A stretch of DNA of 64,000 bases, taken from Verrucomicrobiia bacterium (lineage in GTDB: Bacteria > Verrucomicrobiota > Verrucomicrobiia > Palsa-1439). The position numbers and the translations under genes are program-made. The notes under the pieces are model-generated. The model did no database searches and was not told the DNA's origin. It worked only from the letters and a program-made list of their open reading frames with translations. The DNA is taken from NCBI GenBank assembly GCA_052146795.1, contig JBKQMH010000024.1, forward strand, positions 2,853 through 66,852, given 5' to 3'. This document shows, piece by piece, positions 6,546 through 39,516 of this stretch (position 1 is the first letter of the stretch; every line of letters starts with the position of its first letter).

Positions 6546-6644
6546 TGGGCTCTTACCTCAGGCGCTCCGTTCATCAAATGTGGTTGACGAAGTCCGGGCG
6601 GGAAAGGATGATGAATTTGCGATTTGGTTTGGAGAAGCCTCTGG

Positions 6645-7736: not shown

Positions 7737-7765
7737 TCCATGACGAAAATGGCACTGGGAGGACC

Positions 7766-12919: not shown

Positions 12920-14074
12920 ATGACTACCAAGGCTTCAGTACTCACAGTAAGATTTCCCTCCGCTTTTCCTGACTGCGTGCGGGTGGCACTCAGTTTGGTA
13001 ATTGGGGTGCTCGTGTATTACGCTTACTGGATGCAGCCAGCGGAGGGGGGCATGTCCTGTTATCAGTGGTTGATCGCGCACTGGAACGGAATCTCAAACT
13101 ATTCGCACGGCCCGCTGATTCCCTTGATTGCTTCAGCACTGCTGTGGTGGAACCTGTCGGAGCATGGCCGCGGGGACGAGGATTGGGGGCCGTACTGGCG
13201 GGCCATGGGGGGCGCTGGCGCCGTATTGATGATCTGGATTGTGGGCAGTTCCATTAACAAAGACTGGGAGGATAAGGCCTACTTCTGGTCGCTGACGCTG
13301 TTGCCGTTGACAATCGCATGGCAGGTGTGGGCGTTGCGCGGCCATCTGGTGGGACAGGACGAACCACCCGCGACAACAGGACCGGCGGTCGTGGCGGTGG
13401 CCATGGCGATTTATTACGCGGGAGTGAAAGCTGTTCAGCCCCGCGTGGTCGTCATCTCGGGGATCGTGCTGTTGTACGGTTTGGCGTTGAGTTTTCGCGG
13501 TCGCGATGTGTTTCGTCGGGTGTTTTTTCCGATCACATTTCTGTTCTTGATGGTGCCATTGAATTTTCTGGACGACATGGTCGGATTTCCATTGCGGATG
13601 TTCGTCGCCAGGGTTGCAACCCTGGCCCTCAACTCCATGGGCATCGAGGCCGTGCAACGCGGATCGGGCATCATCTCCCACGTCTTTAGTTTTGATGTGG
13701 CCGATCCGTGCAGCGGGATCCGCTCGTTGATGGCACTGACGACAGTCACCGCGGCCTACGCCTATGTGACGCAACGGGCGCAGTGGAAGCGTTGGTTTTT
13801 ATTTCTTTGCGCCATGCCGTTGGCGGTGCTCGGCAACCTGGCGCGGGTGATCTCGATCGCGTTGGTAGCGCAGGTATACGGGCAGAAAACGGCCACGGAG
13901 GTTTACCACGAGTGGTCGGGGTTTATTCTCTTTCCCGTAGCTCTCGCGGTGATGGTACTCATCGGACTGCTGTTGAATTTTCCATTTTACCGCCTGTTCC
14001 AAAACTGGCTGAAACCGCCGCCGCCACCACCGGACAAGGGGCTGGATGACGACAGGCTTCCGCCTGCAGCATGA
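12920..14074 (+). CDS. Exosortase (EpsH/XrtA-type archaeosortase/exosortase family).
   Basis: About 8 transmembrane segments. Conserved motifs CSGIRSL (Cys) and LGNLARV (Arg). Followed by EpsI. Confidence 0.85.
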   Translation: MTTKASVLTVRFPSAFPDCVRVALSLVIGVLVYYAYWMQPAEGGMSCYQWLIAHWNGISNYSHGPLIPLIASALLWWNLSEHGRGDEDWGPYWRAMGGAGAVLMIWIVGSSINKDWEDKAYFWSLTLLPLTIAWQVWALRGHLVGQDEPPATTGPAVVAVAMAIYYAGVKAVQPRVVVISGIVLLYGLALSFRGRDVFRRVFFPITFLFLMVPLNFLDDMVGFPLRMFVARVATLALNSMGIEAVQRGSGIISHVFSFDVADPCSGIRSLMALTTVTAAYAYVTQRAQWKRWFLFLCAMPLAVLGNLARVISIALVAQVYGQKTATEVYHEWSGFILFPVALAVMVLIGLLLNFPFYRLFQNWLKPPPPPPDKGLDDDRLPPAA

Positions 14075-14087
14075 CGGGAGAAGTTGC

Positions 14088-14873
14088 ATGAGTGAATCAT
14101 CCGCGACAACAACGCCGCCAGCGGCCGTACAACCGGAAGGACAACCCGCCGCGCCGCTACGACGGGGTCCGAGCACGAAACAAATCTCGATCGTGGTTGT
14201 GATCCTGGCAGTCGGGGTGTTGCTCACGGCGACGACCTCGGATGTGGCGAAAGTTTCCGAGCCGGGTGTGAAGTTGTATCCCGATGGAAGCCCGTATCTG
14301 ATCGATCAGGCAGGCGATTGGGCGGGTGGGGAGAAGACGGGATTGACTGAAGACGAACAGCGCCTTTTACCCAAGGACACGGAAGGTTCGCGGCGGATCT
14401 TTAAGGACAAGGACGGCCACGAGTTGTTTTGCTCGATTGTGCTGGCGGGACGCGATGTGACCAGCATTCATCGTCCCGAACTCTGTTTGCCCGGCCAAGG
14501 TTGGAAAATCCAAAGCGAATATACGCAGTCCATACCCGTGGTCGCAGCGCCGGGCGGCACGCTGAACGTGATGCGCATGAACGCCTCTCGCCCGGTTCGG
14601 CTGGCCGGTGGCCGGACGACGCAGGCGCGGTCGGTGTTCGCGTATTGGTTTGTGGGCAAGGATCGGGTAACTCCCTACCATTGGCAGCGCATCTATTGGA
14701 CCGCCAAAGACCGTATCTTTTACAACACGAACCACCGCTGGGCCTACATTTTAATTCACATACCGATCAAGGGCGATGCAGAGGAGGGCGCGTCAGTCAA
14801 ATCGCAAGATGATGCGATGAAGGTGGTCGACAGGTTTATCCAGGCGATTTACCCCGCCCTCGTTGCCAAGTAG
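14088..14873 (+). CDS. epsI: EpsI family protein (exosortase-associated).
   Basis: Hallmark HRPELCLPGQGW. N-terminal transmembrane anchor. GGGAGAAG Shine-Dalgarno before ATG 14088. Alternative start at 14046. Confidence 0.85.
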   Translation: MSESSATTTPPAAVQPEGQPAAPLRRGPSTKQISIVVVILAVGVLLTATTSDVAKVSEPGVKLYPDGSPYLIDQAGDWAGGEKTGLTEDEQRLLPKDTEGSRRIFKDKDGHELFCSIVLAGRDVTSIHRPELCLPGQGWKIQSEYTQSIPVVAAPGGTLNVMRMNASRPVRLAGGRTTQARSVFAYWFVGKDRVTPYHWQRIYWTAKDRIFYNTNHRWAYILIHIPIKGDAEEGASVKSQDDAMKVVDRFIQAIYPALVAK

Positions 14874-14951
14874 CCGTGATGGGACGGCGCCGCAGGCGTG
14901 GGTGGGGGATGAACGGTGCGCCAGAAGCGCCAGAAGTGCCGGAGTGTTCCA

Positions 14952-16370
14952 ATGTCAAATAGACGAAGAGAGGTCATCATTCAAGTCAGCCAGATCGCTG
15001 ACGGGCTGCTGATTGCTGTCGTCTTTTGGTTTGCCCACGCGTTCCGCGAGCAGCTCGCCTTCTCGTTCCCGTTTCCGTATCACGTCCTCGGGCGCACGAT
15101 TCAGTACGGTATGATCGCGCCGTTTCGCTACTACAAGTGGTTGTACTTGATCGTGCTCCCTGTGTATCCATTTCTTCTGGACGCTAACGGCTTTTACAGC
15201 CGCTCCCACAGCCAGCAGCTTCGCAATACGGTGTGGATTCTCGTGAAGTGCAGCATTATCTGCGCGCTAGCGGTCGTGGCGGCGATGTTTTTCTTCCGGC
15301 TGTCCGCGCTGAGCCGTGGTGTTGTGGTGATATTCATGTTGTTCAGTATCGTCGCGCTGTTTGTGAAGGACCAGTTGTTTCAGGCGCTCCTGCGCCATCG
15401 CGCCCGCAGTGGAAAGGAAGTAACGGAGATCATCCTCGTGGGCTCGGAGGAAAGTAACGCGGAGTTTGCCGGGCTGCTCGACGAACACCCGGAATGGAGC
15501 CTCCGTGTCGCCGCCAAACTCGACTCCAACACCGACTTGGTTTCGGAACTTCCCGCCATGTTGCACCGCTACCCCGTCGGGTGCGTGGTCTTCAACGTCA
15601 GTCAAACCGCCTTCGGTGAAATTGAAAAGGCGATCCTCGCGTGCGAAGTCGAAGGCGTCGAGGCGTGGCTCGTGGCCGACTTCGTCAAGACGTCCATCGC
15701 GCGGGCGACTGTGGACGATTTTTACGGGAAGCCACTGTTGATTTTCCGCACCACACCCGAGATTTCCTGGCAGCTTGTCTGCAAGCGGCTCATCGACATG
15801 GCAGGCGCGACGCTCGGCTTGGTCGTCTTGGGTCCGCTGGTCATGGTGCCCGCGGCGATCATCCTAAAGCTTACATCGCCCGGCCCCATGCTGTTCTCGC
15901 AGAAGCGCAGCGGGTTGCATGGGCGCCTCTTCACCATGTACAAGTTTCGCTCGATGGTGACCAACGCCGAATTGCTGAAGGCGGAACTCGAAGTCTTCAA
16001 CGAAATGCGCGGCCCGGTCTTCAAGATGGAGGACGACCCGCGGATCACGCCGGTTGGCCGCTTCTTGCGCAGGACCAGCATCGACGAATTGCCCCAACTC
16101 TGGAATGTCCTCGTCGGGGACATGAGCCTCGTCGGCCCGCGCCCGCCGATTCCCACCGAAGTCCAGCACTACGACCCGTGGCACCGCCGCCGCCTCTCCA
16201 TGAAGCCCGGCCTCACCTGCATCTGGCAGATCAGCGGCCGCAACCAAGTCGGCTTCGACCAGTGGATGAAACTCGACATGCAGTACATCGACAACTGGTC
16301 GCTCTGGCTCGACATCAAGATCCTGGCCCGCACCCTCCCCATCGTACTTACGGGCTTCGGGGCAAAATAG
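14952..16370 (+). CDS. Exopolysaccharide polyprenyl glycosylphosphotransferase (WbaP/EpsB-type 'bacterial sugar transferase').
   Basis: N-terminal transmembrane segments. C-terminal domain PGLTCIWQISGRNQV...DIKILARTLPIVL. Confidence 0.85.
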   Translation: MSNRRREVIIQVSQIADGLLIAVVFWFAHAFREQLAFSFPFPYHVLGRTIQYGMIAPFRYYKWLYLIVLPVYPFLLDANGFYSRSHSQQLRNTVWILVKCSIICALAVVAAMFFFRLSALSRGVVVIFMLFSIVALFVKDQLFQALLRHRARSGKEVTEIILVGSEESNAEFAGLLDEHPEWSLRVAAKLDSNTDLVSELPAMLHRYPVGCVVFNVSQTAFGEIEKAILACEVEGVEAWLVADFVKTSIARATVDDFYGKPLLIFRTTPEISWQLVCKRLIDMAGATLGLVVLGPLVMVPAAIILKLTSPGPMLFSQKRSGLHGRLFTMYKFRSMVTNAELLKAELEVFNEMRGPVFKMEDDPRITPVGRFLRRTSIDELPQLWNVLVGDMSLVGPRPPIPTEVQHYDPWHRRRLSMKPGLTCIWQISGRNQVGFDQWMKLDMQYIDNWSLWLDIKILARTLPIVLTGFGAK

Positions 16371-16497: not shown

Positions 16498-18051
16498 ATG
16501 TCCCGAATCAAGCGTTTCGTCCACATTCTGGCTTCCAGTTACGCTTCGCTGGGCGCCGGCGCTGTGTTCGCCCTCGTGTCCGTGCCGATGGCTTTGCACT
16601 TCCTACCGAAAGCAGAGTTCGGTCTTTGGGCGGTGATGACACAGGCCATTAGCTATATCGCGCTGATCGATGCGGGCATGACGGGTGCCGTGGCTCGTCA
16701 TCTGATCGACTACAAGGATAATCCCGGAGGCGGTGATTATGGCAGTGTGATCCTCACCGGTAATCTCGTGTGGGTAATCCAGGGCGCCATCATTTTTCCG
16801 GTGGGGTTTGCATTGGGTCCCTGGCTCGCACAATTGTTGGCCATTCCGTCGGACCTGCAGCATGAATTCATCATCCTGGTCCGCTGGCAGAGCGCCATCG
16901 TGGCGTTTGGATTCGCCACGCGGCTTTTCGCGCAGATGATCTACGCGCACCAGCGAAATGCCCCGGCAAATTACGTGGAGATTCTCGGTTTTGCGATCAG
17001 TTTGTTCACACTGTGGGTCGCGTTTGTGTGGGGCCAGGGTGTGTACAGCATCTTGTGGGCGGGAGGCATCAGCGCCATCGTGAGCCAGTTGCTGTTGTTC
17101 CTCGTCTGCTGGAGATGCAGGATGTTCCCGCCTTGGGGCGCTTGGGGCCGGCCCACGTGGGCGAGATTCCACCAACTCTTTCACTACGGCAAAGACGTCT
17201 TTCTGGTCATGATGGGCTCGCAACTTGCCTCCGCCAGCCAAACCATCGTGATCACCCGCACCCTCGGGCTGGATGCCGCTGCCGTCTGGTCGGTTTGTAC
17301 GAAATTGTTTGTCTTCGCGGGTGAATTGATCTCGCGCGTCTCCAACTACGCCGAGCCGATGTTTGCCGAGATGATGGCGCGCGGTGAGCATAACCGGTTG
17401 CGCACGCGCTTTCGTGACATCGTCACGATCTGTGGCACGATGAGTGTCTGGGTGGCCGTCGGGTTGGCCCTTGGCAACGCTCCCTTTGTACGCGTGTGGA
17501 CGGCGGGAAAGATCTTCTGGTCGCCCTGGAACGACGTGCTGCTGGGGGTCTGGCTGGTCACGCGATCGATCGTGCGCTGCCACGTCAACCTGATCGTGAT
17601 CAGCAAGAGGATTGGATTCCTTCGGTTCGTCGTATTCGCTGAGGGTATTGTGTTTGTAGTGCTGGCGCTGCTTGTTTCTCGGCGGGGAGGCATCCCGTCC
17701 ATCGTGGGAGCGTCGATTCTCTGTTCCCTGCTACTAACCGGAGACTATAGCGCGCGCAGAAACGCCAAGTACCTCGACTATTCGCGACGGGAGGTCGTGT
17801 TTGGCTGGTTACAGGGCCTGATGCGCTTGTCGGCCTTTCTCGTTCCTTTGGCACTGCTGACGTGGTGTGTTTGTCTGTCGCTTCCCGTCAAATGGCGTCT
17901 TGTGTGTGACTCCATCGTCCTCGGTATTGGTGGCGGACTGCTGTGGCTTCGTTACGGGATCCCTGCCGAAATTCAAGCCGAAGTGCTTGCCCATCTGCCT
18001 TCTCCGTTTACAGCACTGTTGGGAAAGGTTTTTCTCAGGCAGGACGCCTGA
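16498..18051 (+). CDS. Polysaccharide biosynthesis protein / Wzx-like oligosaccharide flippase (MOP superfamily).
   Basis: 517 aa with about 12-14 transmembrane segments and a typical polysacc_synt N-terminus. Confidence 0.7.
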   Translation: MSRIKRFVHILASSYASLGAGAVFALVSVPMALHFLPKAEFGLWAVMTQAISYIALIDAGMTGAVARHLIDYKDNPGGGDYGSVILTGNLVWVIQGAIIFPVGFALGPWLAQLLAIPSDLQHEFIILVRWQSAIVAFGFATRLFAQMIYAHQRNAPANYVEILGFAISLFTLWVAFVWGQGVYSILWAGGISAIVSQLLLFLVCWRCRMFPPWGAWGRPTWARFHQLFHYGKDVFLVMMGSQLASASQTIVITRTLGLDAAAVWSVCTKLFVFAGELISRVSNYAEPMFAEMMARGEHNRLRTRFRDIVTICGTMSVWVAVGLALGNAPFVRVWTAGKIFWSPWNDVLLGVWLVTRSIVRCHVNLIVISKRIGFLRFVVFAEGIVFVVLALLVSRRGGIPSIVGASILCSLLLTGDYSARRNAKYLDYSRREVVFGWLQGLMRLSAFLVPLALLTWCVCLSLPVKWRLVCDSIVLGIGGGLLWLRYGIPAEIQAEVLAHLPSPFTALLGKVFLRQDA

Positions 18052-21945: not shown

Positions 21946-23616
21946 TTAATCCCGTTCCACGTATCGCTGGGCAATGGGGACGCGGCGACCGATACCGAAG
22001 GCTTTGGTGGTGACGCGCAAGCAGGGCGGGGCTTGTTTGCGTTTGTACTCGTTGAGGTCGATTTTGCGGACGACATCGCGGACGAGCTTCTCACCGTAAC
22101 CCGTTTCCTTCACGATCTCGAGCGTCGATTTCGCTTCTTCGACGTAGCGCTTGATGATCGCGTCCAGAATGTCGTAGGGCGGAAGCGAATCCTGGTCGGT
22201 TTGATTCGGGCGAAGTTCCGCGGACGGCGCTTTCGTGATGGAAGCTTCCGGAATGGGGAATCCTTTCTTTCCCGCCGTTCGCTTTCCATTCTGGTTGATG
22301 TACCGGGCGAGTTCATAGACCATCGTTTTGGGCACGTCGGCGATGACGCCGAGGCCTCCATTCATGTCGCCGTAGAGCGTGCAGTAGCCGACAGCCAATT
22401 CCGATTTATTGCCTGTGGTCAGCAGCATGTGGCCGAACTTGTTCGAGAGCGCCATCAACGTCGTGCCGCGAATGCGCGCCTGGATGTTTTCCTCGGTCGT
22501 GTCTTCCGTCAGTCCCTTGAACACCGGCTGTAGCGTGGCTTTGAACCGCTCGAAGACATCCTGAATCACGATCGTCTCCCACCGAATCCCGAGGTTGTGC
22601 GCCAGGTCCCGCGCGTCGTCGATGCTGCCCCGCGACGAAAACTGCGAGGGCATGGAAACCCCCATCACGTTTTCGGCGCCGAGCGCCGCGACCGCCAGGC
22701 AGGCCGTGACCGCGGAGTCGATCCCGCCGCTGAGGCCGAGCACGACCGATTTGAAACCGCATTTGCGCGTGTAATCGCGCAGTCCGAGCACCAGCGCATC
22801 GTGCAGGGCCGCGGCCGGCTTGACCGGCTCGGGCTGAATGGCAACCGGCGAATCCAGGTCAACCAGCACCAGGTCTTCGGCGAAAGCCGCCCCGGCTGCG
22901 ACGAGATGACCGGAAGCGTCGAACACCAGGCTGTTGCCGTCGAACACCAGTTCGTCATTGCCGCCGACGAGATTGCAGTACAGGACCGGAACGCCGTACC
23001 GTTGCGCCACGGCGCGGAGCATATCGTGGCGAACGTGTTCCTTGCCCAGATGGTAGGGCGACGCCGACATGTTCAGCAGCAATTGGGCGTGTTTGTCTCC
23101 TCGCATCAACTCAAAAATCGGGCTGCGTTCGTACAGGCGCTTGGGCAGGTAATCTTGCGGCCAGATATCCTCGCAAACCGTTAGCCCCAGACGCCGATCG
23201 GCGAATTCGACCACGGTATTCGACTCCGCCGGCTGAAAATAGCGATCTTCGTCGAAAACATCGTACGTGGGCAGGAGCATTTTTTGGCGGCGAGCGATAA
23301 TCCTGCCGTTTTGGATCAGCGCGACGGCATTCCAGTAATCGCGGCCGGGGCGTTTGGTATTGAAATCAACATACCCGACAAGCAACGCGGTCTGGCCAAC
23401 CTGCGCGGCGAGCTCCTCCAGCACGCGCAGGTTGTCATCCACGAAGCGGTGTTTAGCGAGCAAATCGCGCGGCGGATAGCCCGTGATGGCCATCTCGGGG
23501 GTCATAACGAGGCCAGCCCCCGCGGTGGTGCCGCGGCGGTAGAAATCGAGGATTCGGGCACCGTTGCCGCCCAGATCGCCCACGGTGGCATCCAGTTGCG
23601 CCAGCGCGATCTTCAT
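21946..23616 (-). CDS. nadE: Glutamine-dependent NAD+ synthetase.
   Basis: N-terminal CN-hydrolase domain (MKIALAQLDATVGDL) followed by a C-terminal NAD synthetase domain. 556 aa. Confidence 0.9.
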   Translation of the reverse strand: MKIALAQLDATVGDLGGNGARILDFYRRGTTAGAGLVMTPEMAITGYPPRDLLAKHRFVDDNLRVLEELAAQVGQTALLVGYVDFNTKRPGRDYWNAVALIQNGRIIARRQKMLLPTYDVFDEDRYFQPAESNTVVEFADRRLGLTVCEDIWPQDYLPKRLYERSPIFELMRGDKHAQLLLNMSASPYHLGKEHVRHDMLRAVAQRYGVPVLYCNLVGGNDELVFDGNSLVFDASGHLVAAGAAFAEDLVLVDLDSPVAIQPEPVKPAAALHDALVLGLRDYTRKCGFKSVVLGLSGGIDSAVTACLAVAALGAENVMGVSMPSQFSSRGSIDDARDLAHNLGIRWETIVIQDVFERFKATLQPVFKGLTEDTTEENIQARIRGTTLMALSNKFGHMLLTTGNKSELAVGYCTLYGDMNGGLGVIADVPKTMVYELARYINQNGKRTAGKKGFPIPEASITKAPSAELRPNQTDQDSLPPYDILDAIIKRYVEEAKSTLEIVKETGYGEKLVRDVVRKIDLNEYKRKQAPPCLRVTTKAFGIGRRVPIAQRYVERD

Positions 23617-23820: not shown

Positions 23821-25185
23821 CTATTCTAAAACGCGCGGGCTAATCGCATGTACGGTGTGCTTAGACAGCAAACACGCATAGCCTACCCCTGCGTAGACGG
23901 TCAGAGTCAAGTCCCATGGGAGCCGGTACCGCTGATACCATTCGGTGATTACCATCACCTCGAAGGCGGTCAGTGCCAGGAACACCAGCAGGGCAAGGCG
24001 CGAGATCGCCAGGTGCCGCATCCGCCACCAACCGTAGTAGCCCGCCGGAAAAATCAGCAGCCAAAACACCGTGGCGATCACTCGATTCCGTGGCGACATC
24101 TGTCCGGTGAACGGCCCCAAGGTCGCGCACAACCTGACGAAACACAGCTTCGCATATTGGGCTGGGTTCTCGCGAATCCAGAGCAGCGCGGCCGGGGTGG
24201 AGTGGTGACCGGTGCGCTCCAGATAGGCGGCGTAACGCGCCGCCTCCTGCTCCGACATCTTCCAACGGGTCCACGGATTGCCGGGCCGCCGCTCCCAGAG
24301 GCTCCCAAGTCGCATACTTTCATAATACGGATTGTTTGCTTCCCACAGGATGGAGGCGGCGGCTTCCTCGGTGCCTTTCTCCGCCAGGGGCCCGCGCGCC
24401 GATACCTCCAACAGCACGCGGCTGGCCGCCGCGCCCAGCGCCACCAGGGCGCAGACCACGCAGACCGCGCGGCGGGTATCGATGAATTGCCACAGCAGCC
24501 ACAGACCCGCCGCCCCAGCGACGACGAAGAAGGCGGCCTGCGCGTAGGCACCCAGAGAGATCGCCAGCGTGAACAGCCACAACCGACCGCTCGTCTGCGG
24601 GCTGGAGGCAGCAAACAGCGCGAGTGCCATTACGAACAAAACCAGGGGCGTCGGGCCGATAGAGCCCACATGCATCGCCAACCGCAGATTGATGAAGACC
24701 AGCAAGGCCGCGATGATCATAGCCAACACACCCTGCCTTGTCGCAATCCGCCATGCCGCGCACGCCACAAACAGACACGTCAGGCCCGCCAACACCGCTT
24801 GCGCCACGGCCACCGGCAGCAAGCGAATACCTCCGCCCCAATAACAAGCAGCCAGAAAGTAAGCGTACACCGGAGCGTGGAAGAAAAACTTACCCGTACG
24901 GGCACGCGGTACACCGGTGCGAAGCGTTGCCATCGCCGCACGATTGTAGACGGTGGCATCCCGGTCCGCATCGCCGTTCCACCCCGGAAAACTGGCCAGA
25001 AAAGCTTCGCCCTCGAGATGCAGGCTGGTGCGGGTAGGGAGATTCTCAGCGTGTGTGGCGTAGTAAACGCCAAAGATCAGGTGGAAAACAAATGTTCCGA
25101 TCACCAGCAAACCTATCGGCAGGTGATTCCGTTGGAACAACTTCGCAGCATCCTGTATGTCGGCCTGACCTTGTCCCGCGTTCAT
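23821..25185 (-). CDS. GT-C membrane glycosyltransferase of the ArnT/PMT_2 type (GT83/GT39-like).
   Basis: Start at MNAGQ. First periplasmic loop DADRDATVYNRAAMA...KFFFHAPVYAYFLA resembles the ArnT DExRYAE...KPPLxY region. About 11 transmembrane segments. Confidence 0.6.
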   Translation of the reverse strand: MNAGQGQADIQDAAKLFQRNHLPIGLLVIGTFVFHLIFGVYYATHAENLPTRTSLHLEGEAFLASFPGWNGDADRDATVYNRAAMATLRTGVPRARTGKFFFHAPVYAYFLAACYWGGGIRLLPVAVAQAVLAGLTCLFVACAAWRIATRQGVLAMIIAALLVFINLRLAMHVGSIGPTPLVLFVMALALFAASSPQTSGRLWLFTLAISLGAYAQAAFFVVAGAAGLWLLWQFIDTRRAVCVVCALVALGAAASRVLLEVSARGPLAEKGTEEAAASILWEANNPYYESMRLGSLWERRPGNPWTRWKMSEQEAARYAAYLERTGHHSTPAALLWIRENPAQYAKLCFVRLCATLGPFTGQMSPRNRVIATVFWLLIFPAGYYGWWRMRHLAISRLALLVFLALTAFEVMVITEWYQRYRLPWDLTLTVYAGVGYACLLSKHTVHAISPRVLE

Positions 25186-26279
25186 CGGCCACCCGGCTCC
25201 TTGTCCGTGGGCCGCCCGGCTCCCGTCGCCGCCCGAGAAGCGACCGCATGCTGTGCGATGTTGACCGCCAGACCGTGTTCTCCCGACATGTTCCACAGGA
25301 CACTGCGATCCCCGGTCGTAATCGCCGTGTAAAAGTTGGCGTGAGTGATGTCCATGCCGTAGTGCAACCGGTGCCGGACGTACTTGACTCCGTTGGCAAT
25401 GAATCCGCGCCAGTGCTGAAAGGTCGTGAGAAACGAAGTGGTGAAAACCTCCTTCATCAAATGCTGCCCGTCGTTCGGAAGCACGGTCGAGATGTCGCGG
25501 AACATGTCCACCATCGCGTACCGCTTCGTTCCAAACACAATGAAGAACCATTCGCAGATGGGGCTCTCGAAGTTGCTATACACGGTTCCCGGCAAGCCGT
25601 TGACTTCCACCGTGATGTCCAGAATCTGTGGCGTGTTCTTGCCGGACGGGGAACCAACCACGGCCACGTCTTTGATCGCCACGTCCCCCCCGCCAAACCG
25701 GCGCAGCAGGTAGAACACATGCGGCGATTCGTCGTAGAACAACCCCAACGGAAGATCGTCCCCCCAAGCGGGAAGCCGACGCGTATCATTGCTAAACTGA
25801 ATGCAGTAGAAGCTTGTAACCGTCCCCAACTTGCCCTCGGCGATGAGCTGTTGCAGTTTGCGGAAACTGGAAGAGAACTGGAAGTTCTGATTCACCGCGA
25901 GGATGACCCGCTTCGCCGTCGCAAGGTCGATGAGTGTGCGGCCCTCCTGCAAATCGGTTACAAACGGTTTCTCAACGAGCACATGTTTCCCGATCTCCAA
26001 ACAGGCACGGACAGCCGGGGCATGCTGCTTGGGCGGTGTCGCAATAAGCACTGCGTCCACCTCCTGCAACAGAGGAATCGACCGCAACTGGCTGCTGTCG
26101 GAGCACACCACCGCGTGGGGGATTCCAAAGAGCCGGGCAACTCGTTCACTCTTGCTCTGCGTGTGATCGACGATGAGGGTGGGTTCAAATCGCTCGCGAC
26201 CCGCGGCGACCAACGCGGGCAAATGCCGCGTCTGCATGATGTTGCCCGCACCAATCAGAGCCAGCTTCAGTTTCTTCAT
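25182..26279 (-). CDS. Gfo/Idh/MocA family oxidoreductase.
   Basis: MKKLKLALIGAGNIMQTRHLPAL. ATGA overlaps on both sides. Confidence 0.8.
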   Translation of the reverse strand: MKKLKLALIGAGNIMQTRHLPALVAAGRERFEPTLIVDHTQSKSERVARLFGIPHAVVCSDSSQLRSIPLLQEVDAVLIATPPKQHAPAVRACLEIGKHVLVEKPFVTDLQEGRTLIDLATAKRVILAVNQNFQFSSSFRKLQQLIAEGKLGTVTSFYCIQFSNDTRRLPAWGDDLPLGLFYDESPHVFYLLRRFGGGDVAIKDVAVVGSPSGKNTPQILDITVEVNGLPGTVYSNFESPICEWFFIVFGTKRYAMVDMFRDISTVLPNDGQHLMKEVFTTSFLTTFQHWRGFIANGVKYVRHRLHYGMDITHANFYTAITTGDRSVLWNMSGEHGLAVNIAQHAVASRAATGAGRPTDKEPGGR

Positions 26280-27439
26280 CGCGGCAGTCCCATGTCCCGA
26301 AAAAGAAAGCGTTCCGTGAGGGCGGCGCAAGAAAAATCGCGCACGATTCGTTCTTGAAGATTTCGCGCCACGCGCGCCCGCAATCCGGGTGCTTGGTCCA
26401 GCCTTCGAAGCGCGGCGTCAATCCGGGTGGGTTCTCCCCGCTCGATCAGGAGCCCCGTTTCGCCATCGACAACGATTTCCGCCGCCCCGCCGCAAGGGGT
26501 AGAGATGACCGCCAATCCACACAACCCCGCCTCGAGCAGAATCGTCGGCAACCCCTCGGGGTAGTTGGACGGGTTGACCAGTACGAACGCTTGCGTCATC
26601 ACGCTCATGACCGTCGCCAGTGGCTGGAGTCCCAAGAATAGAATCTTCGCGTCCTGTTTCGCAGCCTCGCGCAGGGGAGATTCGAGTTCGCCACACCCGA
26701 TGACGACCAGAAGGTAATCCTCCCGATCCCGAGCAAAACTCTGGAAGGCGGCTACCAATTCCATGACACCCTTCTCTTTTACCAGCCGGCCCACGGCAAG
26801 CACAACTTTTTTATCGGCCATCGACCCGATGAGCTCACGGAGTGGCACCACCTCGGTGGGTCGCTGATCCGGATCGACCCCGTTGTAACACACGCCCGCT
26901 TGGCGAACGCCGAACCGGCGGAGCCATTTCACACACGCCTGCGCCACACCAAATACGCGGGGACGGAAGCTTAGGACCGCCAAGGTCATCAAATGTTCGT
27001 AGACATGGCAGGCTGCATTCCACCAGCGGTTGCCGAGCTGGATGTAGTCCGAGCTGTGATCAATGAGCGCCAGCTTGCTTCCCGAGCACCGCGCCCACAA
27101 GCATCCGAGCACCGAGAGAAGATAATAGCGTGTATGGACGATCGTCAGTTCGCCGGGCCGTGAGATGAACTCTCGCGTGAGATGGTAAAGCTGACCCGGG
27201 TTCGTGGGAAATGGCATCCGACAATGGGCCAGAGGGCTCCAACAATGGAGACGGTAGATGGTGATCTGGGGCTGTACGTCAGACCACCCCAGTTGTTCCG
27301 AGTCATGCGTGATGATGCGCACGGCAAAGCCGAGCCGAACACACTCCCTCGCCTGCAAATTGACGTACCGTTCCACGCCGCCCGGATACGGAAGATAATG
27401 CGAACACACTATCGTAATCAACCGTTGACTGGACTCCAT
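26276..27439 (-). CDS. GT4 family glycosyltransferase.
   Basis: EGLPTILLEAGLCGLAVISTPCGGAAEIVVDGETGLL. Start chosen at MESSQRLITIV. Confidence 0.8.
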   Translation of the reverse strand: MESSQRLITIVCSHYLPYPGGVERYVNLQARECVRLGFAVRIITHDSEQLGWSDVQPQITIYRLHCWSPLAHCRMPFPTNPGQLYHLTREFISRPGELTIVHTRYYLLSVLGCLWARCSGSKLALIDHSSDYIQLGNRWWNAACHVYEHLMTLAVLSFRPRVFGVAQACVKWLRRFGVRQAGVCYNGVDPDQRPTEVVPLRELIGSMADKKVVLAVGRLVKEKGVMELVAAFQSFARDREDYLLVVIGCGELESPLREAAKQDAKILFLGLQPLATVMSVMTQAFVLVNPSNYPEGLPTILLEAGLCGLAVISTPCGGAAEIVVDGETGLLIERGEPTRIDAALRRLDQAPGLRARVARNLQERIVRDFSCAALTERFLFRDMGLPR

Positions 27440-27467
27440 GGGGCGGTTGGACAATTGTTTCACTGAA

Positions 27468-28439
27468 TCACGGCATGCTCTTGCGAATCGTGGACTGCAC
27501 GGATTCTCTCGGAACGTTTTGGACATCCATCACCAGTGCCTGCAAAAGCAGTTGCAGACCTAAGATCACGGGCAATACAGCGATCATCACTGTGCCAGTC
27601 GGAGTGGGTAGGCCCGCGTGGGCGTACCACCACCAGTAGTACCCACCCCACAGAATGCCAAAAATCGTTGCCGCCAAACCCGTAACGATGAAGAGTGACA
27701 CCGCATTGAAATCCCGCACGAAGTACTGCATCACGACACGCCCCACCAGTCCCCGCAGCAGCAGGGGCGGAAACTCCAGCAGGGTACGCGTTTCGGACAG
27801 GTGGCTGACCTTCTCGTTGTAACGCGCCGGCATGTACACGTCGCGCACCACCGCGCGGTTCAAGCCCAACTCCAGCAGCATGCTGTTCTCGAAGAAAAAC
27901 CTTTTGTGGATCCTGTTTTGGTCCAGCAGCGGCAGCACGGCGGCATGAATCGCCACGTAACCGTTGTTGGGATCGAAAAGGTTCCAGTAGCCTGAAGCCA
28001 TCTTGGCCATGAACGATAGGCCGATGTTGCCCAGCCTCCGCACCCACGGCATGCGAACCAGTTCGCGGCTGTGCAGAAACCGATTTCCCTTCACGTAGTC
28101 GGCCTCGCCCAGCCGGATCGGTTCGATCAACGCGGGCAGGCCGGCCGGATTCATCTGGCCGTCACCGTCCATTTTCACCAGTACATCCGCGCCCAGTTCC
28201 AGGGCCTTGGCGAATCCCGTCAGCGCTGCCCCGCCGACACCCTGATTGTGATCGTGGCGCAGCACCACCAGCCGCTGATCGCCGACAGAGCGCGCTCGAT
28301 CCAGCGTGGCGTCGGGCGACGCATCGTCCACGACCACGATGTGGTCCACCCACGACGGCAATCCGCGAATCACGTCTTCGATGCGTTCCTCCTCGCGATA
28401 GGCAGGAATTACGATGGCAATTCGCAGATTCTGGTACAT
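27468..28439 (-). CDS. GT2 glycosyltransferase with two C-terminal transmembrane helices (ArnC/GtrB/CsbB-like polyprenyl-phosphate sugar synthase architecture).
   Basis: AIVIPAYREEERI, VVDDASPD, a DGDGQ motif, and C-terminal hydrophobic helices. Start at MYQNLRIAIV. Confidence 0.8.
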   Translation of the reverse strand: MYQNLRIAIVIPAYREEERIEDVIRGLPSWVDHIVVVDDASPDATLDRARSVGDQRLVVLRHDHNQGVGGAALTGFAKALELGADVLVKMDGDGQMNPAGLPALIEPIRLGEADYVKGNRFLHSRELVRMPWVRRLGNIGLSFMAKMASGYWNLFDPNNGYVAIHAAVLPLLDQNRIHKRFFFENSMLLELGLNRAVVRDVYMPARYNEKVSHLSETRTLLEFPPLLLRGLVGRVVMQYFVRDFNAVSLFIVTGLAATIFGILWGGYYWWWYAHAGLPTPTGTVMIAVLPVILGLQLLLQALVMDVQNVPRESVQSTIRKSMP

Positions 28440-28597
28440 GAATGTTCCGAACCTATAACAAGCGCAAACATGCAATGGAAGTGCAAAGTCTCCCCGTGTA
28501 GCGCGGCGCCTGCCGCACGACGGCTTCACGCGCTCGGAGAGGACTCAACCCTGGCTCATTACACAGGTAGAATCTTAACACAACCGGTCGCCTCTTG

Positions 28598-29791
28598 TCA
28601 TTGAGGGGACGACTCGGTAGCGAATTCGTCAAACACCGCGATCATCCGTTTCCCGAAATGGCCGTGAGTATAGTACCGCTCGAATCTTTCTTTGTTCGCC
28701 CGCCCCATGCGCTCTCGTAACTCCGGATCGTTGGCCAAATGCAGGATTTTCCCGGCCAGATCGGACGGGTTCAGTTCTTCCGCCAGCAGTCCGTTGACGC
28801 CGTCCGTGAGAATCTCACTTCGTGCCCCCCCCCGTGTGGCCACAATGGGCAAGCCCGACTGCATGGCTTCCAGCAGCACGATGCCAAAAGCTTCCAGTTG
28901 GGCCGGCGGCGGAAAGACAAGAAGGCTTGCCGACGCCAGTGTGCGCCATTTCGCTTCCCCATAAACCGCGCCAAGGAATTGGACCGCTTGGCACAGACCA
29001 TGATCCTGGAGGAATTGTTCCCCTTCCGCCTTCTCTGTCGCACGAAACCATTCGCCGGCCATGAGTAATTTGGCATCGGGACGGTGCGCCAGCACCAGCG
29101 GCATGGCCGCAAACAAGTCAAAGATCCCCTTGGTCCTTGCGAGGCCACCCAGATACAGGATCCGTAAACCAGTACGCCCTCGATCGGGTGGAGGAAGGCC
29201 GGGTTGCGGTTCAATGCCGATCGGGACTACCTTGATCCTCTGCGGCGATACAACCGCCTCGAAATCGCTGCGCAAGCACTCCGCCAACACCAGCACGAGC
29301 GCCGCGCCGCGCACGTTGGTGTCAAAGCGGCGCTGTAGTTTCGGTGAGAGGGAGTCGCGAAATCGGGACGCGCCGGATCCATGTGACCAGAGCACCACCG
29401 GCACCCTGAACGCCCTCGCCAGCCCGATGAGCACCGAGTCTTTTAAGAACGCATTGCGATTGTACGCGATTGGGTAACAGCAAAAATCGAAGCGCCGCGT
29501 CAACAGGCAGCAAAGTTCGTGGAGGAAAAACCCTGCCAGTTTCAAGAGCTTGCTGATACGAACTACCTCCAGTTCGCGAATATTGCTCACCACACTGAGG
29601 TTGATGAACGTGACGTCGAAGTGGCGTGCGAATTCCGAGCACATCAGGGTTTGATATGCGACGCTCGGACCAAACACGGGCGGCGGAAGCCAGCCGAACA
29701 GCAGGATGCGCCGTTTCCGTCCGCACGGGTTCCCTTCCCGGGGGGCCGGCGCACCGGCTTCGTTGCCTCCCGTGCATGATGATCTTATCAC
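28598..29791 (-). CDS. GT4 family glycosyltransferase (start uncertain).
   Basis: EAFGIVLLEAMQSGLPIVATRGG...DGVNGLL. The maximal ORF extends to 30058, but that extension is Arg/Cys-rich junk. A GTG at 29791 is preceded by GAGGGA and gives the GT4 N-terminus ...RRILLFGWLPPPVFG. Confidence 0.7.
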   Translation of the reverse strand: MIRSSCTGGNEAGAPAPREGNPCGRKRRILLFGWLPPPVFGPSVAYQTLMCSEFARHFDVTFINLSVVSNIRELEVVRISKLLKLAGFFLHELCCLLTRRFDFCCYPIAYNRNAFLKDSVLIGLARAFRVPVVLWSHGSGASRFRDSLSPKLQRRFDTNVRGAALVLVLAECLRSDFEAVVSPQRIKVVPIGIEPQPGLPPPDRGRTGLRILYLGGLARTKGIFDLFAAMPLVLAHRPDAKLLMAGEWFRATEKAEGEQFLQDHGLCQAVQFLGAVYGEAKWRTLASASLLVFPPPAQLEAFGIVLLEAMQSGLPIVATRGGARSEILTDGVNGLLAEELNPSDLAGKILHLANDPELRERMGRANKERFERYYTHGHFGKRMIAVFDEFATESSPQ

Positions 29792-30080: not shown

Positions 30081-31289
30081 TTGTTTAGCGAGGTGCCCAG
30101 CGGGCTGGACTTGCATCATCCGCCCTATCTGAATCTGCGGGCCAACCAGATGTTCTACGCGCTAGCGCTGCTGGCGCGTCAGATCGGGCTTGAATTGCGG
30201 CACCTCGCCAGTCAACGTTTCGATTTTGTGTTCTGCCCGGTTTCTCTGAACCGCAGCGCTTTTCTCAAGGACACAATGTTTCTCGCAATTGCCCGCGTGC
30301 TCGGCGTGCCCGTCGTGTTGTACGGCCACGGCAACAACCTCCCGGAGTTCCGCAACAAATCGCCCCGCTGGCTGCAACGCCTGATTGATTGGGCGGTCCG
30401 CGGCGCGGCGGCGGCGACGGTGCTTGGCAAATGCCTGCGGTTCAATTTTCCGGGTCATCTTCGCGAAGACCAGGTGTTCGTCGTTCCCACCGAAATCGAA
30501 GTGCCCAACCCGTCGCCTGCGGCGACGAAACCGGCCGGCCGATTCACTGTGCTCTACCTCGGCAATCCGGTGCGGGAAAAGGGTGTGTTCGTCATCCTCG
30601 ACGCGCTCCCGTTGGTGCGGGGACGTTGTCCCCAAGCCCATTTCGTCTTCGCCGGCGCGTGGTGGTCTGAAAAGGACGGCGCGGAGGCCGACCGCCTGGT
30701 GCGGGAACGCGGCCTGTCGTCCTGCGTGGAGTTTACGGGAATGGTGACGGGCGACCGCAAATGGGGAATCGTTACCCAGGGTGATGTGTTGGTGCTTCCG
30801 ACCTATTTCCGTTACGAGACGCTCGGCCTGGTGTTGCTGGAGGCGATGGGTGTTGGATTGCCCGTCATCACGACGCGGCGGGCGGCGATTCCCGAAATCG
30901 TGGAGGAGGGTATCAGCGGCCTGTTTGTGGCCGAACAGGATGCCCGCGACCTCGCCGACAAAATCATCACGCTCGCCGGCGATCCGGCCCTTCGCGCGCG
31001 CATGGAGCCTGTGGGAATGGCGCGACTTGAATCCATCGTCGACTTGGAAACGATCTCGAAAGAGCGTGACCGTCACAACACGCGCCTCGTCCACAGCGGA
31101 CGGGATAAATTACGGGCCACACCACCCGGGATTCGCGAGAACCGGGGCAAGCATTGGCTGGCGCAGACACATCACGCCAACCCGCGGACAATCCGCCGAC
31201 GCATCCCGAGCCACAGTCCCATCAGCGCCACCCCGGCCAACGTGATACAGCTGATCGTCGCGCCCAGCCGAAATGACAGCGGGACGTAG
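30081..31289 (+). CDS. GT4 family glycosyltransferase, apparently N-terminally truncated (possible pseudogene). Paralog of the divergently transcribed gene 28598..29791.
   Basis: TTG start. An in-frame TGA at 30060 lies upstream. It lacks the roughly 25-aa Gly-rich N-terminal donor-binding segment that is present in its paralog. Confidence 0.55.
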   Translation: MFSEVPSGLDLHHPPYLNLRANQMFYALALLARQIGLELRHLASQRFDFVFCPVSLNRSAFLKDTMFLAIARVLGVPVVLYGHGNNLPEFRNKSPRWLQRLIDWAVRGAAAATVLGKCLRFNFPGHLREDQVFVVPTEIEVPNPSPAATKPAGRFTVLYLGNPVREKGVFVILDALPLVRGRCPQAHFVFAGAWWSEKDGAEADRLVRERGLSSCVEFTGMVTGDRKWGIVTQGDVLVLPTYFRYETLGLVLLEAMGVGLPVITTRRAAIPEIVEEGISGLFVAEQDARDLADKIITLAGDPALRARMEPVGMARLESIVDLETISKERDRHNTRLVHSGRDKLRATPPGIRENRGKHWLAQTHHANPRTIRRRIPSHSPISATPANVIQLIVAPSRNDSGT

Positions 31290-37658: not shown

Positions 37659-38422
37659 TTCGCGCCGACCTCCATTGTCATACGTGCTACTCGCACGACA
37701 GTTTCGCGGCGGTGGACGCGGTGCTCGAACAGGCGTCGCGTCGCGGCCTGACGCACCTGGCGATCACCGACCACGACGAGATCGACGGCGCCTTGCGCGC
37801 GCGCGACGAGAGCCACGGTCTCGCGATCATCGTGGGCACGGAGGTCTCGCTGGAAGGCGGAGCGCACATCATCGGGTTGTTCCTGGAACGCAAGATCACG
37901 GCGCGACAATGGCGGGAAGCGGTGGATGAAATCCGCGCGCAACGCGGTTTCGTGGTGCTGCCGCATCCGTTTCAGCCGACATCGGGACTGTTGCGCGGCG
38001 GCATCGACGAGGAACTGTTGCGGAACGTGGACGCCATCGAGGTGTGCAATGGTTATGAGCCGCCCGACCGCAACGAGTCCGCGGCCAGACTGGCGCGCGA
38101 ACGCAACCTGCCGGCGCAGGCGGGGAGCGACGCGCATTATGCGGTGGACGTGGGGCGCGCGTGCGTTGAATTTCCGGATGTTTCCGGCGAATTGACGCCG
38201 GAGGCGTTGCGTCAGGCGACGCGCAAACTGTTCGGGCCGGCGCAGGATTTGTCGGGACTGCATGCCGCCGACTCGGCGTTTCGCGCACACACGGCCCCGC
38301 GGGCGCGCAAACTGCTTCCGAAAGCGTTGCGCAATTGCGCCAAAAAGGTAAACTGGTTGCGCGTGCAGCGCCAAATCGAACGCCAGGCACACGAACCCGT
38401 ACGAAAGGAATTCCACGGATGA
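37655..38422 (+). CDS. PHP-domain metal-dependent phosphoesterase.
   Basis: LHCHTCYSHD ... HLAITDHD PHP motifs. ATGA overlap with the upstream gene. Confidence 0.75.
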   Translation: MIRADLHCHTCYSHDSFAAVDAVLEQASRRGLTHLAITDHDEIDGALRARDESHGLAIIVGTEVSLEGGAHIIGLFLERKITARQWREAVDEIRAQRGFVVLPHPFQPTSGLLRGGIDEELLRNVDAIEVCNGYEPPDRNESAARLARERNLPAQAGSDAHYAVDVGRACVEFPDVSGELTPEALRQATRKLFGPAQDLSGLHAADSAFRAHTAPRARKLLPKALRNCAKKVNWLRVQRQIERQAHEPVRKEFHG

Positions 38423-39516
38423 CCGCTTCCTCAACGGACAAATGGGTACCACCGCACGTCGCGGCGCTGGACGGCTATCACGCAACCCCGCCCGTCGCCA
38501 GCGGCCCGGATGTACTGAAGATGGACCTGAACGAGTGCCAGGCGCCGCCGTCGCCGCGGGTGCTGGCGGCGTTGCGCGCCACGGTCGGCGAGAATGCGAC
38601 CCTGAACTGGTATCCCGACAGCGTGTGCACGGCGGTGCGGCAATCGCTGGGCCGCTACCTGAACGTGCCGTCGAATTTTTTGCTCGTGGCGAACGGGTCG
38701 AACATGGCGATGGAGCTGGTCGCGCGGGCGTTTCTGGTCCGGGACGATCCGGTGCTCATCGTGTCACCCGTGTACGCCGTCTTCTCGGTGCAGTGCAAAC
38801 TGCAACAGGCGCGGATCGAGTCGTTCCAGTTCAGCAAGCCGTTTGCGCCCGATTTTCAGGAACTGCTCGCGAAGGGTGGCGCGCACAAGATGATTTATCT
38901 CGCGAACCCGAACAACCCGACGGGCGTCGGTTATCCGCGGGAACAGATCCGCGCGCTGTTGGAGAAGCGGCGGGATGCGCTGGTCGTGCTCGACGAAGCC
39001 TACGTTGAGTATTACGGCGAAAGCAGCGTTGGGTTGATCGAGACGCACCCGAATTTGCTGGTCTTGCGGACCCTTTCCAAGGCGTTTTCGCTGGCCGGGA
39101 TGCGGTGCGGCTATGTGGTCGCCCAACCGACCGTGTTGGACATACTGGGGCGCGTGCTGGCGCCGTGGGCCGTCAGCGGCCTGACGCAGGTTGCCGCGCA
39201 CGCCGCGGTGGAAGACCTGGAGTACATGCGGAAGACGGTTGCGGAATGCAGTCGCGCGCGGCAGCAGGCGGTTGACGGCCTGAAGGAACTCGGATTTGTC
39301 GTTCACAACACGCAGGCGAATTTCATCCTCTGGCAGGTGCAGTCGCCGGCGCGCGCCGTGGAAGCGCTGGCCGCGCGGAACGTCCATGTCAGCAACAAGG
39401 ACTCCGTCCCGCAAATGAAAGGTTATTTGCGCGTGACCGTGGGCAGCCGCGAGCAGACGCAACGATTTCTGGGAATCGTCCAAGAGCTTCGGGCCAAAAG
39501 ATTGTTGGAGCCGTGA
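38419..39516 (+). CDS. Histidinol-phosphate aminotransferase family (class II PLP enzyme; HisC/CobD-like).
   Basis: About 365 aa, typical HisC-like. ATGA overlap. Confidence 0.8.
   Translation: MTASSTDKWVPPHVAALDGYHATPPVASGPDVLKMDLNECQAPPSPRVLAALRATVGENATLNWYPDSVCTAVRQSLGRYLNVPSNFLLVANGSNMAMELVARAFLVRDDPVLIVSPVYAVFSVQCKLQQARIESFQFSKPFAPDFQELLAKGGAHKMIYLANPNNPTGVGYPREQIRALLEKRRDALVVLDEAYVEYYGESSVGLIETHPNLLVLRTLSKAFSLAGMRCGYVVAQPTVLDILGRVLAPWAVSGLTQVAAHAAVEDLEYMRKTVAECSRARQQAVDGLKELGFVVHNTQANFILWQVQSPARAVEALAARNVHVSNKDSVPQMKGYLRVTVGSREQTQRFLGIVQELRAKRLLEP

Follow-up and report, generated by a model that had tools for sequence, protein, structure and literature searches.

In archaeal N-glycosylation with dolichyl phosphate as carrier, which employs AglJ, further glycosyltransferases and AglB, the Haloferax pathway builds and modifies an oligosaccharide on a monophosphate carrier. 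The ArnC/ArnT system, together with ArnE/F, provides the lipid A of Escherichia coli and Salmonella with aminoarabinose. In the polysaccharide pellicle pathway of lactococci, a DPMS-like glycosyltransferase of family GT2 (WpsA/WpsB) primes undecaprenyl monophosphate (C55-P), the resulting GlcNAc-P-C55 is extended in the cytoplasm by the adjacent glycosyltransferase WpsC and further glycosyltransferases, and the GT-C protein WpsJ carries out the transfer outside the cell, with WpsG serving as flippase (PMC10821137). The GtrA/GtrB/GtrC and pentofuranose systems of Gram-negative O antigens combine a lipid-monophosphate donor, a flippase and a GT-C protein for the decoration of Wzx/Wzy-type polysaccharides after assembly; in the three-component pentofuranose systems a cytoplasmic redox enzyme, either the short-chain dehydrogenase/reductase (SDR) ORF13 or DprE1/E2, modifies the sugar while it is lipid-linked and thereby determines which side chain is formed (PMC11127046). 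The operon analyzed here is located in a stretch of 64,000 nucleotides from contig JBKQMH010000024.1 of a Verrucomicrobiia bacterium, which is termed the window throughout this text, and encodes a GT2 protein, a soluble GT4 glycosyltransferase, an oxidoreductase of the Gfo/Idh/MocA family (Gfo) and a polytopic membrane protein of 454 amino acids (aa). Judged by sequences, structure models and gene order, the operon appears to work like the Arn, Gtr, CsbB/YfhO, GacIJKL and Wps pathways but to be orthologous to none of them, since all equivalog thresholds are missed, the C-terminal domain of ArnT is absent and the Gfo enzyme has no counterpart in these pathways.

The four genes are located on the minus strand between positions 28439 and 23821 (Table 1), and the boundaries given in the original prediction coincide exactly with the start of the GT2 gene and the stop codon of the membrane protein gene. 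ATGA overlaps had likewise been predicted within the unit; they are present at the GT4/Gfo and Gfo/membrane protein junctions, whereas the GT2 and GT4 genes are separated by a spacer of 28 nt when the ATG start of the GT4 gene is used and of 4 nt when the alternative GTG start is used. A further GT4 gene is located upstream of the GT2 gene at a distance of 158 nt; it lies outside the coupled unit and is part of the surrounding polysaccharide cluster. The same string of four genes was found on three near-identical contigs of metagenome-assembled genomes (MAGs) at NCBI, where independent gene calls yielded proteins of 323, 387 or 395, 365 and 454 aa, and the 454-aa sequence exactly matches a hypothetical protein from a Verrucomicrobiia MAG. 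The base composition of the region is unremarkable, with a GC content of 0.59-0.61. A weak sigma-70-like promoter match (ATGACA-18-TAAGAT, with a TG element) was detected at the upstream edge of the 158-nt gap, and its first hexamer overlaps the stop codon of the upstream GT4 gene. The operon boundaries rest on gene spacing only, because neither promoter-like sites (3 in the region versus 2.6 expected by chance) nor terminator-like sites (5 versus 9.1 expected) were enriched over shuffled sequences.

The protein specified by the first gene starts with MYQNLRIAIVIPAY and matches the GT2 family PF00535 at an E-value of 5.3e-22. Its best match among PDB sequences is the dolichyl phosphate mannose synthase DPMS of Pyrococcus furiosus (5mlz), with E-values of 1.4e-19 for the protein alone and 2.6e-24 for a family profile of 39 sequences. 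No exchange of D91, D93 or Q95 was found among 39 homologues, and the three residues align with D89, D91 and Q93 of DPMS, of which D91 and Q93 bind Mg2+ and D89 represents the other residue of the DXD motif (PMC10821137). Hydropathy analysis revealed two strongly hydrophobic C-terminal segments at residues 246-264 and 284-302, and the AlphaFold model (pLDDT 90.7) consists of a GT-A domain, an interface helix at residues 216-242 and two transmembrane (TM) helices at residues 246-275 and 281-307, the latter two having been anticipated by the original prediction. A Foldseek search with this model yielded ArnC, DPMS and GtrB as the top 20 PDB matches, all of them over the full length (about 330 aligned columns) and with E-values of 3.3e-15 for ArnC (9asc), 2.1e-14 for DPMS (TMq 0.61-0.63) and 3.9e-13 for GtrB. 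The GT2 protein is thus most likely a polyprenyl-phosphate glycosyltransferase of the DPMS/GtrB/ArnC type. It belongs to a large family with more than 7,800 matches at E <= 1e-10, the best 120 of which share 55-83% identity with it. The best NCBIfam match is AglJ (full length, 3.7e-22), followed by PpgS, and the scores remain below every equivalog cutoff (79.1 bits versus 325 for AglJ, 72.1 versus 370 for PpgS and 22 versus 529 for ArnC). By these scores the protein is not an orthologue of AglJ, PpgS or ArnC, so that no named enzyme fixes its sugar.

The 454-aa protein specified by the last gene has almost exclusively Verrucomicrobiia proteins as close relatives in the genome collection, and a homologue search yielded 108 clusters with 40-55% identity. 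The only Pfam match of the protein at E <= 10 is an insignificant one to DUF5313, and the sole PDB match of its family profile, an mRNA cap methyltransferase at an E-value of 2.6, represents noise. The relationship to known glycosyltransferases became apparent from its homologues, 24 of the 52 family members matching PMT_2 (PF13231) at E <= 0.01, in a region corresponding to residues 93-255 approximately. Four of them (P0031, P0055, P0069 and P0083) reach 28.2-33.4 bits, compared with a gathering cutoff of 26.1, and cover positions 2-154 of the 160 positions of the profile. A search of 1.84 billion representative sequences with the family profile resulted in 36 matches at E <= 1e-30, 329 at E <= 1e-10 and 3,743 at E <= 1e-3. 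Ten distant full-length relatives of about 400 aa (1e-13 to 1e-56) were examined; eight are PMT_2 proteins with 31.9-60.1 bits, and four also exceed the cutoff for PMT (PF02366). Moreover, the AlphaFold model of the 454-aa protein is confident (pLDDT 92.7, pTM 0.91), and its 29 best PDB matches in Foldseek all have the GT-C fold, including STT3, ArnT, AglB, Pmt4, PglB and PimE, with STT3 in first position (1.5e-4) and ArnT (5ezm) in second (3.2e-4, TMq 0.48). These data support the assignment of the protein, made in the original prediction, to the GT-C-fold glycosyltransferases, where it would form an outlying PMT_2/ArnT-like family specific to Verrucomicrobiia.

A DE..Y..E motif in a loop of this protein had been suggested as a further mark of the fold, and part of it appears to be present. 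The residue D76, located in the first external loop (residues 45-104), is invariant in the 52 family members and retained in at least 90% of the sequences when the distant PMT_2 relatives are added, and Y80 is conserved to at least 90% in this wider alignment. By means of hhalign, D76 and Y80 were placed on D31 and Y35 of the E. coli ArnT segment PDETRYAEISREM, with a modest E-value of 1.7e-4 and a probability of 49.7%, whereas the neighbouring glutamate residues of ArnT correspond to A77 and R82 and are not conserved. The most conserved blocks of the family are WEANNPYYE (residues 281-289), residues 331-380 and YxRYRLP (residues 417-423). The predicted topology comprises seven helices, a large external loop at residues 264-364, which is the only large non-membrane segment of the protein, and three further helices; with this arrangement the lysine and arginine count is 9.0 inside versus 5.0 outside, compared with 5.4 versus 8.6 for the alternative, and all conserved loops would be periplasmic. 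The chain ends in the model just after the last helix (residues 422-445), and no C-terminal soluble domain is present. Among the other identities considered for this protein, that of an oligosaccharyltransferase orthologue was rejected on account of the missing C-terminal domain, and so was a Wzy/WaaL-type identity, as weak Wzy_C matches are confined to four relatives and none of the top structural matches belongs to that type.

The pairing of a GT2 gene with a gene of the 454-aa family was also observed in related Verrucomicrobiia clusters, in which the latter is accompanied by orthologues of GT2, of a YfhO-like gene, of a plus-strand GT4 gene and of a second GT2 gene. GT2 orthologues with 66-84% identity are located within 5 kb of the 454-aa homologue at four loci (L001, L003, L025 and L027), and a GT2 gene directly adjoins it at two (L011 and L012). 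A more distant GT2 protein (30-38% identity) is encoded beside or near the GT-C gene at L011, L012 and L013. Locus L027 carries two GT2 genes, a methyltransferase gene and the 454-aa homologue on one strand and a YfhO-like gene in convergent orientation, the slot between GT2 and GT-C being filled by a 344-aa GT2 and the methyltransferase (5386-9272). At L003 (5313-9176), GT2 and GT-C are spaced as at L027 and a YfhO-like gene is likewise convergent, the genes in between being not annotated, and epimerase fragments and a YfhO-like gene occupy the slot at L025. It seems that the first and last enzymes stay constant and that the content of the slot varies. Additionally, a natural fusion of a GT2 domain with a homologue of the 454-aa protein (P0104, 624 aa) was identified on one Logan contig (L021, 2789-4663). 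The fusion backs the link between GT2 and GT-C in general and not the orthology of the GT2 proteins, because BLASTP detected no similarity between the GT2 protein of the window and the GT2 half of P0104. The same contig also holds a separate string of GT2, DUF2304 and YfhO-like genes. Taken together, the folds, motifs and repeated linkage favour the logic proposed originally for the pair of GT2 and GT-C proteins, namely that of ArnC/ArnT, GtrB/GtrC and CsbB/YfhO.

The two enzymes encoded between this pair are predicted to be cytoplasmic. The GT4 protein, a GT-B enzyme with no TM segment, matches PF00534 (1.1e-29) and PF13439 (3.8e-14) and meets no NCBIfam equivalog threshold. The Gfo protein matches PF01408 (3.7e-25) and PF22725 (1.3e-6) and has a Rossmann fold starting at residue 5. 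Little or no variation was found in 40 homologues at G10 and G12 in the nucleotide loop, at E103-K104-P105, at D183 and at H187, and we take the EKP sequence and the conserved aspartate and histidine to be the catalytic motifs of the Gfo/Idh/MocA family. NCBIfam matches of Gfo are far below the cutoffs (72 bits versus 330 for the best one and 69.8 versus 355 for inositol 2-dehydrogenase), and the search for solved structures yielded no close relative, the best PDB match (3e82, 6.6e-20) covering only the N-terminal, nucleotide-binding half. In terms of sequence, the enzyme falls in no subfamily of known substrate.

The genomic context of Gfo homologues was analyzed by scanning metagenome contigs, which resulted in 80 loci, and counting was confined to the 20 Gfo-family loci flanked by 4 kb or more in each direction. 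A GT4 gene is immediately adjacent to the Gfo homologue at 17 of the 20 loci, and within four genes of it a polyprenyl-phosphate-type GT2 is encoded at 15 loci and a protein of at least 350 aa with at least seven TM segments at 17. All three are present together at 13 of the 20 loci, and a small protein with 3-5 TM segments is encoded nearby at 11. The large membrane proteins fall into many unrelated sequence clusters, among them DUF2142, PMT_2, GT87, YfhO and TPR-bearing proteins and several with no Pfam match, and the small ones resemble DUF2304/GacJ, GtrA or EamA/SMR proteins; a GtrA-type flippase is present at L031, L068 and L071. Orthologues of the GT4 gene are located directly upstream of Gfo at L029, L030 and L031, and a GT4/Gfo overlap of 1 or 4 nt recurs at these loci. 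On the Verrucomicrobiae contig L029, Gfo (74% identity) and GT4 (81%) are encoded beside a pair of a GacI/GacJ-type GT2 and DUF2304, and at L030 the pair of Gfo (57%) and GT4 (43%) lies between two large membrane proteins. In Geopsychrobacter electrodiphilus (L031; ARWE01000001, about 979-986 kb), the genes for GT2 (49%), GT4 (29%) and Gfo (38%) are arranged as in the window, and downstream of them are encoded a methyltransferase, GtrA and then a membrane protein with the sequence YFDDYPG after its first helix and TPR repeats at its C-terminal end. A contig of a gut member of the Lachnospiraceae (L113) carries DUF2142 followed by GT2, DUF2304, GT4, Gfo, two further GT2 genes and a Wzx-type flippase gene, and Sphingosinicella sp. 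BN140058 (L114, positions 5752-10195; CP035501, about 2.440-2.445 Mb) a GT2 gene with a GT2_TM_C domain followed by Gfo, GT4 and an LPG_synthase_TM gene. The LPG_synthase_TM protein, which is MprF-flippase-like, suggests another type of flippase candidate in the same pathway. The trio of GT2, GT4 and Gfo thus represents a cassette that recurs across phyla, usually together with a small flippase-like protein and a variable large membrane protein. The original suggestion of a link between the oxidoreductase and a lipid-linked pathway gains weight from this neighbourhood, as both GT4 genes and GT2 genes of the polyprenyl-phosphate type accompany Gfo homologues in many phyla. A literature search of incomplete coverage yielded no description of the cassette.

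Against this background, the operon can be compared with the known pathways component by component. The Arn system shares with it a GT2 protein with two C-terminal helices, a PMT_2-type GT-C protein with an aspartate and tyrosine pair to which D76 and Y80 were aligned, and overlapping genes as in the E. coli arn locus. In contrast to Arn, the operon encodes GT4 and Gfo in place of the ArnA/ArnB/ArnD chemistry, the window contains no ArnE/F-like genes, and the putative GT-C protein has no counterpart of the periplasmic domain at the C-terminal end of ArnT (550 aa). The likeness to the Wps pathway would consist in the order of priming by a DPMS-like GT2, extension and external transfer, and the Firmicutes locus L113 shares with that pathway the layout of GT2, DUF2304, GT4 and Wzx-type flippase, plus DUF2142. 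Unlike the Wps pathway, the GT2 protein of the window carries TM helices itself in place of a WpsB/GacJ partner, the Gfo enzyme is additional, the GT-C family is a different one and the host is Gram-negative. The Gtr and pentofuranose systems resemble the operon through GtrB and, by prediction, through their logic of donor, flippase and external decoration; they differ from it in moving a single sugar with no GT4 involved and in using an SDR or DprE1/E2 as editor and not a Gfo/Idh/MocA enzyme, and a GtrA-type flippase is missing from the window. With regard to the archaeal pathway, AglB and STT3 are among the best matches of the GT-C model, whereas the AglJ score of the GT2 protein is low and the large C-terminal domain of AglB, STT3 and PglB is absent; nothing in the analysis points to a protein acceptor.

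On the basis of these data, it is reasonably probable that the operon as a whole specifies a multi-component pathway of transmembrane glycosylation. The GT2 protein, anchored by its two C-terminal helices at the cytoplasmic face, would use a nucleotide sugar to glycosylate polyprenyl (undecaprenyl) monophosphate, as its fold, motif and family suggest. The soluble GT4 may then add a second sugar to the lipid-linked one, in view of gene linkage and the precedent of WpsA/WpsB/WpsC, and the NAD(P)-dependent Gfo may oxidize one hydroxyl group in the cytoplasm to give a keto sugar, or an epimer after re-reduction, as linkage and the redox editors of the pentofuranose systems suggest. These two steps could occur in either order, and Gfo may instead act on the nucleotide sugar. 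The lipid-linked glycan would be flipped by a protein encoded outside the operon and transferred in the periplasm by the putative GT-C protein, with D76 of the first external loop taking part, to an acceptor that is most likely the polysaccharide of the surrounding exosortase-associated Wzx-type cluster; proteins are possible as well. The neighbouring YfhO-like GT-C candidate may share the donor pool.

Within this scheme, the action of GT4 and the oxidoreductase on a lipid-linked intermediate is a tentative proposal by analogy to the systems named above. Since GT4 belongs to the conserved cassette and is not a bystander, a modified disaccharide may serve as the donor in place of a single sugar. 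A further step would regard the trio as a widespread donor-building cassette that provides an oxidized (keto or epimerized) disaccharide on polyprenyl monophosphate, to be moved en bloc by a GT-C protein recruited in each lineage, the acceptor being here the exosortase-associated polysaccharide or PEP-CTERM proteins; we consider this generalization rather unlikely as it stands. The recruits would be a minimal PMT_2-like protein in the Verrucomicrobiia of this study and DUF2142, GT87, YfhO and TPR-bearing proteins elsewhere. In the window, a donor-side cassette of wide distribution is thus combined with a transferase specific to the lineage, because no Gfo-family locus holds a homologue of the 454-aa protein.

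Several observations weigh against the proposed pathway. The distribution just mentioned is one of them, and conversely no other locus with a 454-aa homologue carries the GT4/Gfo pair; as neither set of loci contains both parts, the four-gene combination is lineage-specific and, among the contigs searched, occurs on the near-identical MAG contigs only. About half of the loci with a 454-aa homologue contain no GT2 orthologue within 8 kb. Direct searches of Pfam, NCBIfam and PDB sequences with the 454-aa protein yielded no usable match, and hydropathy and charge counts are the sole basis of its membrane topology. A small ORF (open reading frame) with several TM segments, of the GtrA, ArnE/F or GacJ-like kind, was not detected in the 64-kb window, and a tblastn search with 41 small membrane proteins from cassette loci gave no match in it. 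Finally, polysaccharide clusters often contain GT4 genes, so that some of the adjacency counted above may reflect a shared context and not a shared lipid intermediate.

In one alternative, a classical three-component system, the donor is a monosaccharide: the GT2 protein would synthesize a polyprenyl-phosphate sugar that is moved by the 454-aa GT-C protein, Gfo would take part beforehand in the synthesis of an unusual nucleotide sugar, and GT4 would serve the repeat unit and be merely co-transcribed. Single sugars are transferred in the GtrB/GtrC, ArnC/ArnT, CsbB/YfhO and GacI/GacL systems (PMC11127046, PMC8035078, PMC10821137), Gfo enzymes acting on UDP-sugars exist and the NCBIfam model of UDP-GlcNAc 3-dehydrogenase matches the Gfo protein at 2.3e-13, and repeat-unit synthesis clearly accounts for several additional GT4 genes of the cluster in the window. 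We nevertheless regard the monosaccharide donor as unlikely, given the translational coupling of the GT4 gene to the oxidoreductase gene, their adjacency at 17 of 20 loci and the occurrence of this adjacency where no other polysaccharide genes are nearby, as at L030 and at L031, which lies by signal recognition particle and ribosomal genes.

A second alternative, improbable in our view, assigns the GT2 product to the YfhO-like protein encoded upstream, in the manner of CsbB/YfhO, and regards the 454-aa protein as, for example, a polymerase, ligase or transferase of a diphosphate-linked unit. YfhO-like orthologues with 41-67% identity are conserved beside the homologues of GT2 and the 454-aa protein at L001, L002, L003, L025 and L027, the Wzy_C matches of the four relatives reach 6.3e-5 at best, and the top structural matches of the 454-aa protein include oligosaccharyltransferases with diphosphate-linked donors. 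Against this alternative, the protein lacks the C-terminal periplasmic domain of such enzymes, its gene shares an operon with the GT2 gene and overlaps the preceding gene, a fusion with GT2 exists, and at L027 the 454-aa homologue forms an operon with the two GT2 genes and the methyltransferase gene on one strand whereas the YfhO-like gene is convergent. Moreover, a separate Wzy-like candidate is encoded in the window, and two consumers of one donor are not mutually exclusive. That four unrelated genes of the polysaccharide cluster were packed together by chance, with no common lipid-linked intermediate, is very improbable, since two ATGA overlaps and the associations of GT2 with the 454-aa family and of GT2, GT4 and Gfo across phyla, both of which recur independently, outweigh the density of glycosyltransferase genes between 14.9 and 35 kb and the finding of the exact four-gene order in near-identical MAGs only.

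The pathway proposed for the operon is embedded in an exosortase/PEP-CTERM-associated polysaccharide locus that comprises the whole window (Table 1). In addition to the genes for exosortase, priming transferase and flippase, the locus contains an acetyltransferase gene, several GT4 and GT2 genes and an epimerase gene. The Wzx-like flippase gene lies 5.8 kb beyond the 3' end of the operon and adjoins the gene of the priming transferase, and EpsH and EpsI are encoded 12 kb downstream of the PEP-CTERM protein gene. The YfhO-like protein has weak NCBIfam matches to PgfM1/PgfM2 and represents, on sequence evidence, a second GT-C candidate and a possible co-conserved consumer of the GT2 product. Its gene converges with a plus-strand GT4 gene, and the 3' ends of the two genes overlap by 118 nt, an arrangement that was also called on L022. 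The 570-aa polytopic membrane protein is a candidate for the Wzy-type polymerase or ligase of the cluster, and it is kept at 30-42% identity in the related Verrucomicrobiia clusters L003, L004 and L013.

Some further genes of the window were recorded. A gene for a glutamine-dependent NAD synthetase with CN_hydrolase and NAD_synthase domains is located within the polysaccharide cluster directly 3' of the operon, from which it is separated by a gap of 204 nt with a promoter-like site. An 831-aa ORF rich in glycine, asparagine and threonine directly precedes that for exosortase. A PEP-CTERM tail is absent from it, and the sole region of low GC content in the window (0.51 at 10-12 kb) coincides with its position. 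A protein in which a zinc-type alcohol dehydrogenase is fused to a second Gfo/Idh/MocA domain is encoded next to a class I/II aminotransferase and may belong to a separate amino-sugar pathway. The longest ORF at a further position contains a GT2 domain only from residue 171 onwards; its true start is probably located much further downstream, or else the first 170 residues represent an extension that is not annotated.

Table 1. Positions of the operon genes, their junctions and other features of the window
Feature	Position	Strand	Remarks
GT2	28439-27468	-	323 aa
GT4	27439-26276	-	387 aa; alternative GTG start at 27463 gives 395 aa
Gfo/Idh/MocA oxidoreductase	26279-25182	-	365 aa
Polytopic membrane protein (GT-C candidate)	25185-23821	-	454 aa
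ATGA start/stop overlap GT4/Gfo	26279-26276	-	read directly in the sequence; translational coupling
ATGA start/stop overlap Gfo/GT-C candidate	25185-25182	-	read directly in the sequence
Upstream GT4	29791-28598	-	397 aa; PF00534 1.4e-31; also called as 397 aa on L022 and L023
Sigma-70-like promoter match	28572-28601	-	weak
Promoter-like site in the 204-nt gap	23725-23698		
PEP-CTERM protein	32-775	+	247 aa; tail with VVPEP, hydrophobic helix and RKRGAGKK
ORF with GT2 domain	8365-9612	+	415 aa
ORF rich in Gly, Asn and Thr	9841-12336	+	831 aa
Exosortase EpsH	12920-14074	+	
EpsI/DUF3485	14046-14873	+	
Priming Bac_transf enzyme	14916-16370		
Wzx-like flippase	16498-18051	opposite to operon	
Polytopic membrane protein (Wzy-like candidate)	21914-20202	-	570 aa; no Pfam or NCBIfam match
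NAD synthetase	21946-23616	-	
Plus-strand GT4	30081-31289	+	
YfhO-like membrane protein	33736-31172	-	854 aa (longest ORF); PF09586 1.4e-15, C-terminal part only
Class I/II aminotransferase	38335-39516		
Alcohol dehydrogenase-Gfo/Idh/MocA fusion	39513-41588	+	691 aa

The surface chemistry of bacteria, which covers their serotype, their phage receptors and, by way of lipid A modification, their resistance to antibiotics, is set by glycosylation outside the cell with polyprenyl-phosphate donors. The logic of a GT2 protein combined with a GT-C protein is already known and will not surprise the specialist; the lead worth following is the conserved module of GT4 and oxidoreductase with interchangeable GT-C partners. 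If GT4 and the oxidoreductase indeed act on the lipid-linked sugar, the cassette would provide a general route to keto or epimerized disaccharide decorations with interchangeable transferases in organisms as diverse as Verrucomicrobiota, Geopsychrobacter (Desulfuromonadales), Sphingosinicella (Sphingomonadales) and gut Lachnospiraceae represented by MAGs. Its presence in the sequenced isolates G. electrodiphilus and Sphingosinicella sp. BN140058 may make it testable there. Moreover, the 454-aa protein would be a compact GT-C glycosyltransferase that is missed by standard domain searches, and the operon provides a concrete candidate for the decoration of the polysaccharides or proteins handled by exosortase systems, the chemistry of which is poorly known.

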